A stretch of DNA of 47,335 nt, from NCBI GenBank assembly GCA_001818675.1, contig MHJF01000023.1:1-47335 (forward strand), given 5' to 3'. Source of the DNA: Candidatus Harrisonbacteria bacterium RIFCSPHIGHO2_02_FULL_40_20 (lineage in GTDB: Bacteria; Patescibacteriota; Minisyncoccia; UBA6257; WO2-44-18). Shown one piece after another: positions 3,104 through 45,260 of this stretch. The position numbers and the translations under genes were made by a program. Every line of letters starts with the position of its first letter. Within the stretch, counting starts at the first letter, position 1. Below the pieces are notes generated by a model. That model was not told the origin of the DNA and did not search any database. It saw only the letters and a program-made list of their open reading frames with translations.

Positions 3104-3505
3104 ATGCGCCTCATCTTTTCCGCCTATTTTCTTATAATTTTTATTCCTTTAGTGGTGGTATCGGTAGGGTATGCCACTTTTACGGGGTTATCTTTACATA
3201 ATCTTTGGATTGATCGCGTTGCTCATTTTGCAGGCGGTTTTTGGGCGGCGGTTTTATTTCTTTATATATTTAGGGAATATTCAGAGTTAAAAAGATTTTC
3301 GGAATTTTTAGAAAGCTGGATTTTGGTTTTAGTTTTTACTTTAGGATTTGTGGCTTTAATTGGGGTGTTGTGGGAGGTATTTGAGTTTACTACGCATAAT
3401 ATTGGGACCTTAGGAGATACTATTGAAGATCTTAGTTTAGATTTAGTTGGGGCAGCCGTGGCGGTAATTCTGAGTTTTTTCTATAAAAAAATAGATAAAA
3501 AGTGA
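3104..3505 (+). CDS. hypothetical integral membrane protein
   Basis: 133-aa ORF whose ATG abuts the rpsI stop. Several long hydrophobic segments. No family recognised. Confidence 0.6.
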   Translation: MRLIFSAYFLIIFIPLVVVSVGYATFTGLSLHNLWIDRVAHFAGGFWAAVLFLYIFREYSELKRFSEFLESWILVLVFTLGFVALIGVLWEVFEFTTHNIGTLGDTIEDLSLDLVGAAVAVILSFFYKKIDKK

Positions 3506-3520
3506 TATAATATAAGCGCA

Positions 3521-6914: not shown

Positions 6915-7457
6915 TTTGTAAAAGAGTTAGAACAAAAACTTAAAGCGATTGTTGATTCCTTTAAGCAGGAATTATTTGGTATACGCGCTAATCGTCCGAG
7001 TGCTAAGTTGGTGGAAGATATAAGAGTAGATTATACTGGGCAGTCATTGATGATTAAACAGTTGGGTTCTATTAGTATTGTTCCTCCTAAAGAAATTGAT
7101 ATCAATGTTTGGGACTCTAGCGCGGTGGCTTCGGTGGCTAAGGCGCTAGAGTCTTCTAAGCTTGGTCTTTCTGCGAACATTGACGGCAATCTTATTAGGA
7201 TTAATCTTCCTTCCTTGACTCAAGAACGGCGCGATGAGCTGGCAAAATTAGTAAAGTCTATTGCGGAACAGAATCGCATTAAAATTAGGGCTGGCCGCGA
7301 TGATGCCAATAAAAAGATTGAACAAATATTTAAAGAGAAAAAAATCAGCGAAGACCAAAAATTTAAAGATAGAAAGAAAATTCAGGAGGCGGTGGATAAG
7401 GTGAACAATGGAATAGAGGCCTTGTTAGCTGACAAGATTAAAGAAATAAATGAATGA
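6909..7457 (+). CDS. frr: ribosome recycling factor
   Basis: 182 aa with FGIRANRPSAKLVEDIRVDYTGQ and LPSLTQERRDELAKLVK. Full-length compared with known RRF proteins. Confidence 0.93.
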   Translation: MDFVKELEQKLKAIVDSFKQELFGIRANRPSAKLVEDIRVDYTGQSLMIKQLGSISIVPPKEIDINVWDSSAVASVAKALESSKLGLSANIDGNLIRINLPSLTQERRDELAKLVKSIAEQNRIKIRAGRDDANKKIEQIFKEKKISEDQKFKDRKKIQEAVDKVNNGIEALLADKIKEINE

Positions 7458-16841: not shown

Positions 16842-16913
16842 GAAGGCTAAACCCCGAATTTAAAATTTGGGGTCGCCCGATCAAAACGCAGTTTTGATTT
16901 AGGGAGGTGACAG
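16842..16913 (+). promoter_or_regulatory. Element-2 leader (variant II) upstream of a small-protein operon
   Basis: GAAGGCTAAAC, a variable hairpin, then CGATCAAAAC-GCA-GTTTTGATTTAGGGAGG, then the ATG at 16914. Confidence 0.6.
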
Positions 16914-22490: not shown

Positions 22491-22588
22491 GTGTTGCCTC
22501 CCTAAATCAAAACGAAGTTTTGATCGGCTATAGCCCGATGGGCTCGCCCATTTAGGTGCGAACAATTTGCAAAGTAAATTGTTTTAGC
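22491..22588 (-). promoter_or_regulatory. Element-2 leader (variant I) upstream of gpt-guaB
   Basis: The reverse complement matches 27282-27377 with 4 substitutions in the shared ~92-nt block. It ends GATCAAAAC-TTC-GTTTTGATTTAGGGAGG before the ATG. Confidence 0.65.
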
Positions 22589-25767: not shown

Positions 25768-26193
25768 ATGGCAAAACCAATCAAAACAACCTTAAAGCTT
25801 CAGATTCCGGCGGGCGCCGCGAACCCGGCTCCTCCGATTGGGCCTGCTTTGGGCCAACACGGCGTGAATATTGCTGAATTTTGTAAGCAGTTTAATGAAG
25901 CCACTAAAACTATGACGGGCGATATTGTTCCTGCGGAAATTACGATTTATGAAGATCGCAGTTTTACTTTTAAATTAAAAACTCCGCCCGCTTCAGCTTT
26001 ATTAAAAAAGGCTGCTGGAATTGAAAAGGGATCAGGCAATCCAATTCTTACTAAAGTTGGCAAGGTTACTAAAGAAGATTTACGTAAAATTGCAGAGCGA
26101 AAGATGCCCGATTTAAATACCGACAATGTTGAGGCAGCGATGCGCATTATTGCTGGCACTGCCAAGAATATGGGAATAGAGGTGATAGAGTAG
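25768..26193 (+). CDS. rplK: 50S ribosomal protein L11
   Basis: 141 aa with [25 protein letters not shown]. Confidence 0.96.
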
Positions 26194-26354
26194 AGGATTT
26201 TGGTATTTTCGGAGATATGCTTTTCGGAACCAGAATAATTAGCTCCAGCGGGCTAATTTTCTTTTCCCTCGGCGATTTTTCGTTCGTTGAAAATTATAAC
26301 GAACGAGCCATGTAAAATCGCCTCCGGGACATTCCGAGCCAGCATACCATCCTC
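26193..26354 (-). ncRNA. Element-3 copy b: candidate structured RNA of unknown class
   Basis: Its reverse complement aligns with 45076-45223. Conserved unpaired blocks and covarying helices. A minus-strand TTAGCT-N16-TATTAT lies at 26394-26367. Confidence 0.45.
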
Positions 26355-26374
26355 AACCAACATCCAATAATATT

Positions 26375-26403
26375 TTGACTTTTTACATAGCTAATGCTAT
26401 TAT
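26375..26403 (+). promoter_or_regulatory. candidate promoter of the Nudix gene and its leader
   Basis: TTGACT-N17-TATTAT, about 22 nt upstream of the Element-2 leader. Confidence 0.6.
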
Positions 26404-26424
26404 CTCTGGGGTTGTTTAAAAATT

Positions 26425-26491
26425 GAAGGCTAAACCTCGAATTTTCGAGGTCGCTCGATCAAAACCTCGTTTTGATTTAGGGAGATGGCAA
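26425..26491 (+). promoter_or_regulatory. Element-2 leader (variant II) upstream of Nudix hydrolase
   Basis: GAAGGCTAAAC, hairpin CCTCGA/TCGAGG, then CGATCAAAAC-CTC-GTTTTGATTTAGGGAG. Lies downstream of the promoter at 26375-26403. Confidence 0.65.
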
Positions 26492-27037
26492 ATGGCCAAA
26501 GTTTGCGATCACACGAGCGTGGGTTTGCTTTTATCATATCAGAATAACAATGATTGGCAGTTACGTTTTTTAATGATAGAGCGGCATAATTATCCTCAAG
26601 CAATAGCTTTGCCAGCTGGGCATTGTGATGGCGACGATTTCTATAAAGCTATACGGCGTGAAGGTAAGGAAGAAGTCGGGATAGATCTCGGAAATTTAAA
26701 TTTGAATTTTGTTGCAAGAATAGATAATCCCTGTAAACGTCAGGATGGATCTCACCATATTTGGGGAATTTTTGAGGGATATTTTTATAGTGGTACTGTA
26801 GCTGCTGGCAGCGATGCTAAAAGATTTTTCTGGGCCACTCTTGACGAGTTAAGAAAATTTTCTCAAAGAACCGAATTTTTTATGAAGAAATATTCTGTTG
26901 ATTGGCAGGACGTTGGTAAGTTGACTAAGGCCATTTTTGGCGATCCACAGAATCCTCAAGTTGATCCGGATTGGCAAAAGGAAATGGGCCTTGAGCCGGT
27001 GTGGTATTATATACTGAAGAAATTGATGTATATTTAG
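26492..27037 (+). CDS. Nudix hydrolase with C-terminal extension
   Basis: Starts at MAKVCDH, after the shared hairpin-SD leader. Nudix box-like GHCDGDDFYKAIRREGKEEVGI. The ORF-track start at 26423 lies inside the leader. Confidence 0.75.
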   Translation: MAKVCDHTSVGLLLSYQNNNDWQLRFLMIERHNYPQAIALPAGHCDGDDFYKAIRREGKEEVGIDLGNLNLNFVARIDNPCKRQDGSHHIWGIFEGYFYSGTVAAGSDAKRFFWATLDELRKFSQRTEFFMKKYSVDWQDVGKLTKAIFGDPQNPQVDPDWQKEMGLEPVWYYILKKLMYI

Positions 27038-27045
27038 TGATTTGA

Positions 27046-27069
27046 CTGCCCTTACGAGGGCGGTTTTTA
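27046..27069 (+). terminator. intrinsic terminator after Nudix gene 1
   Basis: CTGCCCT-TACG-AGGGCGG followed by TTTTTAT. Confidence 0.7.
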
Positions 27070-27122
27070 TATGCCGAATTTTAAAACGAAAACCGGGACT
27101 TTTAGGTCGTGAAAGGACAGTT

Positions 27123-27160
27123 ATATCTAAGTGCTATCCTATAGGATAGCACTTAGATAT
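27123..27160. repeat. 38-bp perfect palindrome
   Basis: ATATCTAAGTGCTATCCTA|TAGGATAGCACTTAGATAT. I verified by hand that it equals its own reverse complement. Confidence 0.95.
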
Positions 27161-27281
27161 TCAGAGTTTGAATTATAAAGAAACCACGGACTTTAGTTCG
27201 TAGAATTTTATTGGTACGGGGTTGCGGAGGCGGTTTTTATTTTCTATAATCTTATTACGTTCTTTTACATAAATAAAAAGA

Positions 27282-27377
27282 CTAAAACAATTTGCTTTGC
27301 AAATTGTTCGCCCCTAAATGGGCGAGCCCATCGGGCTATAGCCGATCAAAACCCCGTTTTGATTTAGGGAGGCATAT
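27282..27377 (+). promoter_or_regulatory. Element-2 leader (variant I) upstream of dCMP deaminase
   Basis: 10-bp hairpin AACAATTTGC/GCAAATTGTT, TCGCCC-CTAAAT-GGGCGA, GATCAAAAC-CCC-GTTTTGATT, then AGGGAGG and the GTG. Confidence 0.65.
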
Positions 27378-44898: not shown

Positions 44899-44936
44899 AA
44901 ATCCGCCTCGGTTAACCCCGAAGCGGATTTTTTATT
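44899..44936 (+). terminator. intrinsic terminator after the 186-aa membrane protein gene
   Basis: AAATCCGCCTCGG-loop-CCGAAGCGGATTT followed by TTTTATTT. Confidence 0.75.
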
Positions 44937-45075
44937 TCCCTGCTTTCATCCTCACTTTTTCTTAGGTTAAATCTTATTTAGGTCAGCCTATTTTTCGCAC
45001 TAGCGTGATGGAGGGGTCGAATTTTTTATCTTCCCACCTCCACTTTTGCTTTGGTACCGCATAAGACAGGCGAAG

Positions 45076-45223
45076 ATCTTGTTTCGCCTTTTCGTAGGGA
45101 ACATCCCGCAGCTTGGCTGAGCTTGGTGCCCGACAAATGTCGGGATCAGCCGAGCGAGGGAGAAGAAATTTTTACCGCTGGAGTAAAAATATTCTGGTTC
45201 CCGTAGAAAAGGCGGGACAAGAT
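45076..45223 (+). ncRNA. Element-3 copy a: candidate structured RNA of unknown class
   Basis: A 27-nt closing helix (45076-45102 with 45197-45223; 24 pairs including 2 G-U) encloses a long arm (45114-45151) and a hairpin with loop CGCTGGA (45169-45189). Confidence 0.45.
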
Positions 45224-45231
45224 TAATTCAT

Positions 45232-45260
45232 TTGACAGGCATCCAAAGAAAAAGTATCAT
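45232..45260 (+). promoter_or_regulatory. candidate rpsP promoter (predicts a leaderless or near-leaderless mRNA)
   Basis: TTGACA-N17-TATCAT. In-frame ATGs lie 8 and 14 nt after the -10. Confidence 0.55.

Follow-up and report, generated by a model that had tools for sequence, protein, structure and literature searches.

CPR bacteria (Patescibacteria) have streamlined genomes of about 1 Mb that are usually called poor in mobile DNA. Classical MITEs are defined by conserved terminal inverted repeats (TIRs) and target-site duplications (TSDs). For the Rickettsia palindromic elements (RPEs), we know of no transposase. RPEs are hairpin-forming repeats of about 150 bp that occur between genes and, with unusual frequency, in frame inside unrelated housekeeping genes at fold-compatible positions, and each RPE family is reported to encode a conserved peptide (PMC10969869). 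REPINs are rod-like, non-autonomous repeats that are long-lived in their lineages and are believed to work as single strands in folded form (PMC3116915, PMC3337134).

We analyzed a contig of Candidatus Harrisonbacteria bacterium RIFCSPHIGHO2_02_FULL_40_20 (MHJF01000023.1, the whole stretch of 47,335 nucleotides, hereafter the window), which carries two copies of a folded repeat. Copy a, at 45076-45223 on the plus strand, aligns with the reverse complement of 26193-26354 (copy b), identical long blocks alternating with differing segments. The blocks GGAAYRTCCCG, CGAGGGARAAGAAA, CCGCTGGAG and ATTCTGGTTCC are common to both copies, and pattern searches place each of them at these two window sites only, in agreement with an initial annotation that had reported two related copies with shared conserved blocks at these positions. 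Both copies adopt one architecture, a rod capped by a three-way junction, with folding energies of -81 kcal/mol for copy a (z = -8.1 versus shuffled sequence) and -64.5 kcal/mol for copy b (z = -6.3 versus shuffled sequence). The complementary strands are less stable (-67.3 and -58.5 kcal/mol, respectively). In the family unit, a long closing helix of arbitrary sequence (P1) leads through a symmetric, purine-rich internal loop to a compact three-way junction at the apex. The features of the two window copies are as follows.

45072-45229, plus strand: copy a, whole rod (minimum-energy fold; covariance model match of 132.6 bits at 45084-45215)
45075-45093, plus strand: copy a, 5′ strand of P1, pairing with 45206-45224 in 19 contiguous bp, three of them G-T; its sequence is variable across the family
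45206-45224, plus strand: copy a, 3′ strand of P1 (fold)
45097-45107, plus strand: copy a, 5′ core GGGAAC-A-TCCC, made of the 5′ strands of P2 (with 45197-45202) and P3 (with 45158-45161)
45108-45110, plus strand: copy a, junction GCA, directly 3′ of the 5′ core (fold)
45111-45155, plus strand: copy a, variable long arm, in which P4a pairs 45111-45120 with 45146-45155 (10 bp)
45121-45128, plus strand: copy a, conserved bulge GCTTGGTG; the GCTTGGT bulge is kept across the family
45129-45134 with 45139-45144, plus strand: copy a, P4b hairpin with loop AAAT
45156-45202, plus strand: copy a, 3′ core, made of GA-GGGA-GA-AGAA, then the P5 hairpin, then TATTCT-G-GTTCCC
45168-45175 with 45183-45190, plus strand: copy a, P5 stem, with the loop CCGCTGGAG around 45176-45182
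26195-26365, minus strand: copy b, whole rod (fold; covariance model match of 90.2 bits at 26212-26350)
26224-26337, minus strand: copy b, conserved apical domain (fold)
26331-26337 with 26224-26230, and 26326-26329 with 26265-26268, minus strand: copy b, P2 and P3 (fold)
26314-26322 with 26271-26279, and 26298-26306 with 26280-26288, minus strand: copy b, P4a and P4b (fold)
26252-26262 with 26232-26243, minus strand: copy b, P5, with the loop CCGCTGGAG

In copy a, a 3x3 internal loop (GTA/GTA) separates P1 from the 6-bp P2, and the conserved helices are P2 (GGGAAC/GTTCCC), P3 (TCCC/GGGA) and the base of P5 (AGAA/TTCT). Among the conserved sequences, what stays unpaired in the fold is limited to the junction bases, the GCTTGGT bulge and the CCGCTGGAG loop. 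Several details of the initial annotation are revised by this structure. The four conserved blocks had all been taken as single-stranded, but three of them pair with each other (P2, P3 and the P5 base), and a closing helix of 24 pairs within 27 nt, two of them G-U, gives way in copy a to the 19 contiguous pairs with three G-T listed above, followed by the 3x3 loop. The element of about 150 nt is present, although the ends initially assigned to it were slightly short of the rods. The hairpin GGCGAA/TTCGCC at 45069-45088, proposed to compete with the closing helix, exists in the sequence but is not used in the minimum-energy fold. The helices that had been listed as different in the two copies yet complementary in each do fit the same plan: GGCTGA/TCAGCC and CCCGAC/GTCGGG in copy a correspond to GGCGATTTT/AAAATCGCC and TCGTTCGTT/AACGAACGA in copy b, and the stem of the loop hairpin is TTTTTAC/GTAAAAA in copy a and AATTAGC/GCTAATT in copy b. 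The bulge of copy b is a variant, ACATGGC in place of GCTTGGT, and CAUGG is also found in one subtype of the family. A 51-aa open reading frame at 45051-45206 (plus strand) across copy a is the element read in one open frame and is spurious; such a frame recurs at other copies (e.g., L001:240-473), and its mis-annotation as a gene is possible.

Relatives of the two copies were collected by pattern searches and then with a covariance model. Scanning one genome for each GTDB species with a three-block pattern gave 19 loci, all in Patescibacteria MAGs and at most three per MAG, the MAGs being labeled Colwell-, Yanofsky- or Harrisonbacteria, Paceibacterota or 'Saccharibacteria'. In metagenomes, a looser two-block pattern yielded at least 116 loci, mostly from groundwater; some eight metagenome pattern matches were rejected as chance matches in GC-rich coding DNA (L037, L064, L077, L094, L122, L123, L129 and L141). 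A covariance model built from 21 copies and searched against the collected genome and metagenome loci gave 164 matches, with 118 distinct strong copies and some divergent subtypes that the patterns had overlooked. The homologues with covariation that the initial annotation proposed to seek with such a model were thereby recovered. Nearly all relatives come from Patescibacteria MAGs or groundwater metagenomes. Rods measure 98 to 202 nt (median, 145.5; 100 rods). The density in the window is about one copy per 20 kb, and clusters occur elsewhere, with up to three or four copies within a few kilobases of a contig and up to three strong copies within 5 to 7 kb.

Rfam 15 had zero matches in the whole window at the gathering threshold, and searches at E ≤ 10 around both copies and at E ≤ 0.5 at four other loci returned chance-level matches only (LhrC, mir-250, and group II D5 at 15 bits), consistent with the initial view that the element matches no known RNA family. 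ARAGORN detected no tRNA or tmRNA in the window. A strict pattern had no matches in viral contigs, so that a phage origin is without any sign. A literature search, limited in reach, returned no description of the element in CPR bacteria. The family is previously uncatalogued, having neither an Rfam entry nor a description in the literature searched, with the proviso that absence from a search is no proof.

The alignment of the family supports the predicted helices. In 99 distinct sequences, 96.3% of the cells form standard pairs, compared with 70% for shuffled partners and about 47% for slid partners, and double changes occur in 38 of the 39 pairs. The helices that appeared to covary between the two window copies therefore reflect a real structural constraint, as had been proposed. 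P2, P3 and the P5 base are identical between the window copies, but in divergent subtypes they covary as well, and what stays fixed there is the unpaired sequence, i.e., CGCAG, the GCUUGGU bulge, CGAG and the CCGCUGGAG loop. This agrees with the initial argument from conserved loops and covarying stems. At syntenic loci in diverged genomes, most differences between copies are double compensatory changes, and broken pairs are few. The copy upstream of rpsP in L085 shows 12 double changes, one single pair-keeping change and no broken pair relative to copy a, and the syntenic copies of L084 and L106 differ by 17 double and two single changes, again with no broken pair. This compensatory pattern could mean that resident copies are under selection and useful to the host; it could equally result from replacement by conversion.

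G-U or U-G pairs outnumber A-C or C-A pairs in the family (141 versus 32), indicating that the strand given initially (plus for copy a, minus for copy b) is the one that folds. The forward fold is the more stable one in 18 of 21 copies. When copies were sorted by orientation relative to host genes, the G-U:A-C ratios were 29:4 for sense copies, 50:14 for antisense copies and 111:22 for the rest. As the wobble bias is alike in sense and antisense copies, it is not imposed by host transcripts. At the arm tips, triloops make up 33 of the 93 loops; C(GAA)G was found 10 times, C(GTA)G four times and a GNRA loop once. C(GNA)G is well known as the extra-stable mini-hairpin of DNA; the loops favored by RNA hairpins are GNRA and UNCG. 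The triloop-rich arm tips give a hint towards a DNA form of the folded strand; the conserved three-way junction, by contrast, is more typical of RNA.

Copies that are 93 to 97% identical occupy unrelated flanks, and their similarity stops symmetrically at the rod base, which identifies the whole rod, including P1, as the repeated unit. P1 falls into a small number of types, found again and again at unrelated loci; rod ends are otherwise wholly different between subfamilies, with complementarity kept. Copies that are otherwise nearly the same can differ by a whole P4 arm, swapped like a cassette, a sign of recombination among copies. In one case an intact copy interrupts a decaying one. No conserved flank motif, direct repeat (TSD), or terminal sequence or TIR was detected around 100 rods, where the sole flank signal was a weak R-A preference at positions -2 and -1. 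Rod lengths show no preference for multiples of three, the three remainder classes counting 34, 32 and 34. The 720 flanking open reading frames held no common neighbor gene and no enrichment in transposases or reverse transcriptases. Searches for cargo-carrying copies with split 5′ and 3′ cores found none, and joined-flank BLAST among the collected loci found no occupied/empty site pairs.

We considered whether P1 arises from host flanks by inverted duplication and rejected this as a general rule, since the same P1 types recur at unrelated loci. In the rod within iscS of L019, the outermost 13 bp (GTAAAAAGTTTTG/CAAAACTTTTTAC; 7225-7250 and 7060-7085) include host coding sequence, AVKSF, that aligns with homologues, which suggests that a palindrome can grow outwards by copying a flank inverted. 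Other tiny perfect palindromes sit in the bulge or loop of the element (L070:2668-2828, L055:209-340, L015:1455-1613, L038:946-1114 and L120:3842-3979), for example CCCCGTTACTCAACTAGTTGAGTAACGGGG within GCTTG^CTTGG, where CTTG may have been duplicated. Additional mini-hairpin repeat families that target unpaired DNA seem to be present in these genomes. Family members less than 100 nt apart always lie head to head, with their 5′ ends facing, at five of five distinct loci where one in four would be expected for each (L082:7644-7988, L015:1298-1613, L073:2603-2912, L039:1486-1778 and L006:7596-7865); such pairs usually combine one canonical copy and one divergent subtype.

Nine copies are located within long open reading frames, in sense and antisense orientations and in different frames, and all of them keep the host frame open. 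In the IscS/NifS genes of L002, L014, L019 and L098, the element is antisense and the frame runs on into the rest of the enzyme; the IscS insert is 57 aa long at a place where solved homologues (PDB) have about 6 residues. In MnmA, the same variable loop is occupied by a sense copy in L016 and by an antisense copy in L059, and homologues without the element have a short variable loop; these are independent insertions at a tolerated site. The N-terminal linker of ParB carries the element in L007 and L117, and one membrane protein also has an in-frame element. Because the reading frames differ among these copies, there is no element-encoded conserved peptide. That none of the frames is closed argues for translation through the element and against its removal by splicing. 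The IscS gene of L014 has a second insertion at 3378-3512 (residues from about 227), with a weak sense-oriented model match of 20 bits, which may be a degraded or distant family member.

This dispersed behavior, with mixed orientations, unrelated flanks and copies inside genes, argues for selfish mobile DNA and against an RNA gene of the ordinary kind. We therefore consider it probable that the window copies belong to a large family of selfish, non-autonomous repeats of Parcubacteria-type CPR bacteria that spread via a folded single strand, and we hold any specific chemistry of propagation with far less confidence. The initial annotation had described a functional structured RNA and not a recent MITE; the strand-specific fold and the non-MITE ends agree with this, and the dispersed-repeat behavior goes against it. 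Mobility, recognition of the apical domain and structure-defined ends are what we infer from these data. The element would multiply through a folded single strand, DNA or RNA, of its forward strand, and the apical junction would be the module recognized in trans. The stems would need only to pair, and the rod base, not a terminal sequence, would set the ends. Copies would exchange parts by recombination or gene conversion and would persist where they are harmless, in intergenic gaps, often right behind a stop codon, or in surface loops where a protein tolerates them, being translated there in any frame that happens to be open. Among the loci analyzed, we found no transposition event, no exact-end occupied/empty pair and no mobilizing enzyme.

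So complex a junction, nearly invariant across several candidate phyla, would be more usual in a functional RNA than in the DNA hairpins that known transposases use. Possibly, though we put this forward only tentatively, the family represents a structure-defined replicator, with a rod of about 145 nt, an apical junction read in the folded strand, sequence-independent ends and machinery outside the known transposable-element classes, or else the junction is the RNA partner of a CPR protein. Either way, this would involve a long co-evolution with Parcubacteria.

The genomic context of the two window copies is as follows. Copy a lies between a terminator-like hairpin of a 186-aa gene on its 5′ side (around 44900-44935) and an rpsP promoter-like site on its 3′ side. 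This site, TTGACA-17-TATCAT at 45232-45260, is strong in a promoter scan, and the initial placement of copy a upstream of the rpsP promoter holds. Judging from the surrounding sequence, copy a is not obviously transcribed. All same-species contigs contain both window copies with zero differences. By S16, the nearest named relatives of the window are Harrisonbacteria. A relative with a 70% identical S16 has smc directly followed by rpsP and lacks the element, one Harrisonbacteria genome has a Y1 (IS200-like) transposase gene between smc and rpsP, and in L085, from another organism, rpsP is preceded by a different member of the family. In a population variant of the window locus (L152:1-1195), an rve-family integrase (IS) gene precedes the 186-aa gene; the first bases of the contig already belong to an additional copy of the element, showing that the repeat breaks assemblies.

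The 3′ end of copy b begins 2 nt past the rplK stop codon (26191-26193). The copy is antisense to rplK and to a NUDIX gene, and it has no downstream gene on its own strand. In L023 and L029, whose L11 is identical, copy b and the adjacent NUDIX gene are absent, and a terminator-like hairpin with a T-run follows rplK. The gene order there (L023:3426-3521, and L029) is rplK, the terminator-like hairpin, then the dCMP deaminase gene, with the NUDIX gene further downstream; in the window, by comparison, an insertion at 26195-27300 separates rplK from dCMP deaminase and comprises copy b, the NUDIX gene and some 340 nt of repeats. The spacer between the NUDIX and dCMP deaminase genes contains a perfect 38-nt palindrome at 27123-27160 (ATATCTAAGTGCTATCCTA/TAGGATAGCACTTAGATAT), flanked by two terminator-like GGCGGTTTTTAT motifs at 27052-27070 and 27222-27240, and looks like the scar of an inserted cassette. 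A second window repeat, GATCAAAAC-NNN-GTTTTGAT-TTAGGGAG, is present at 16879-16906 (plus strand), 22498-22525 (minus strand), 26457-26484 (plus strand) and 27344-27371 (plus strand), four copies where none would be expected by chance. In it, an 8-bp hairpin is joined to a GGGAG that resembles a Shine-Dalgarno sequence, and at two sites the repeat closely precedes a start codon, those of the NUDIX and dCMP deaminase genes. It may act as a common translation-leader hairpin, or it may be one more small repeat.

That the element acts as a host-exapted cis element, as proposed for REP/BIME, ERIC and SPRITE, serving as a 3′-end stabilizer, terminator or insulator when read antisense, is compatible with a selfish origin but seems unlikely to us. 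Many copies adjoin the stop codon of a convergent gene, copy b at rplK included, and on the 3′ side 52 copies face a convergent gene and 30 a co-directional one, the copies not all being independent. Copy b stands in place of the terminator-like hairpin found behind rplK in relatives, and its reverse complement contains a terminator-like match, the P5 hairpin followed by TTCTTTTCCC. Nevertheless, the forward strand is constrained even where host genes transcribe the reverse complement (50:14), the reverse-strand hairpin is A/U-rich and has a poor U-tract, and neither the in-gene copies nor copy a, between a terminator and a promoter, can work in this manner.

The copies might instead be host-functional, trans-acting structured RNAs, each one an RNA gene with a junction that binds a protein or a ligand. 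Unpaired nucleotides are conserved while all helices covary, the constraint is strand specific, no Rfam family accounts for the element, and syntenic copies are retained with compensatory change. We nonetheless think this quite unlikely. Neither window copy gave a forward-strand promoter or terminator in consensus scans, a method of low reliability in CPR bacteria; as far as such scans can tell, the element does not carry these signals, and its flanks are not conserved. Orientations are mixed, with 24 antisense and 9 sense copies between co-directional genes, an excess that is suggestive only, as the copies are not all independent. Copies in both orientations lie in frame within coding sequences, near-identical copies occur at unrelated loci, and some head-to-head pairs are only about 9 to 30 nt apart, leaving no room for promoters.

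The possibility that the rods are REPINs of the clade's Y1 (IS200-like, RAYT-like) transposase, moved as single-stranded DNA by the PF01797 protein, was also weighed, and it appears improbable. Y1_Tnp (PF01797) proteins of 230 to 250 aa are conserved and very widespread in Parcubacteria, with 6,091 matches, the best 120 of which are 59 to 100% identical to the query. Y1 genes are found on contigs that also bear the element (L102, L108 and L165), and the strand-specific fold and the absence of TIRs and TSDs fit what is generally known of HUH/Y1 biology, as does the triloop hint. The Y1_Tnp genes are positioned at L161/L162:2182-2892, L163-L165:10001-10750 and L108:2971-3633. However, at the five Y1_Tnp loci examined the gene is flanked not by the element but by 20- to 30-nt hairpins of its own, with a TTGCGAT-type loop and unrelated to the element. 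The stems of these hairpins differ between genomes, their loop is approximately TTGCGAT, and they are found almost only beside the Y1 gene; the window contains no TTGCGAT-loop hairpin. The L161 locus has the Y1 gene and lacks the element, and the sole resemblance, between the L108 hairpin AGGACTT...AAGTCCT and the P1 base of one subfamily, is weak. The Y1 gene with its hairpins looks like a separate system, single-copy and of IS200 or RAYT type. As these hairpins are unrelated to the element and not dispersed, the Y1 link remains a candidate only.

An intron-like or self-cleaving RNA, removed from or cutting host transcripts, would fit the compact conserved junction, the long closing helix that would join the flanks and the copies inside genes, but it is extremely improbable, since all nine in-gene copies keep the frame open in sense and antisense orientations and in different frames, which would be needless if they were spliced, a self-cleaving sense copy would destroy its mRNA, and no Rfam ribozyme or intron matched even at E ≤ 10. 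A riboswitch or leader function was rejected, the downstream gene being on the same strand in 30 cases and on the opposite strand in 52, with no same-strand gene downstream of copy b.

Taken as a family of selfish repeats spreading through a folded strand, the element has practical consequences. With over 100 members and strong covariation, the alignment could go into Rfam or Dfam as it stands. Because the element breaks contigs, it affects MAG assembly, and inserts of about 50 residues would confuse protein annotation and structure prediction. We know of no transposition chemistry that would combine a near-invariant three-way junction with freely varying termini, so that this family provides a defined substrate with which to look for the factor reading it.

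The element shares features with four kinds of known systems. Like structured noncoding RNAs such as riboswitches, ribozymes and the RNAs of ribonucleoproteins, it has conserved unpaired nucleotides, covarying helices, a compact junction and strand specificity; unlike them, it is dispersed, stands in no consistent relation to a downstream gene, matches no Rfam family and showed no transcription signals in our scans. It resembles classical MITEs (Correia, ERIC and Nezha) in being small, multi-copy, non-coding and foldable, in lying between and occasionally within genes and in having near-identical copies at unrelated sites, but both conserved TIRs and TSDs are absent from it. With the REPIN-RAYT system it has in common a rod-like form, the lack of classical TIRs and TSDs and a clade with a conserved single-copy Y1 transposase. 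REPIN rods, however, are made of conserved REP sequences that flank the RAYT gene, whereas the CPR Y1 genes are flanked by unrelated hairpins, and REPINs are extragenic whereas the CPR element is also found inside genes. Compared with RPEs, the CPR element is read in different frames and both orientations and has no conserved peptide; it conserves its apical junction while stems and termini vary, its sequence is unrelated, and its hosts are CPR bacteria, not Alphaproteobacteria. Like RPEs, it is an approximately 150-nt hairpin repeat of a host lineage with reduced genomes, inserted in frame into unrelated genes at tolerated positions, and in reaching essential genes (iscS, mnmA and parB) it offers a convergent parallel to the Rickettsia palindromic elements.
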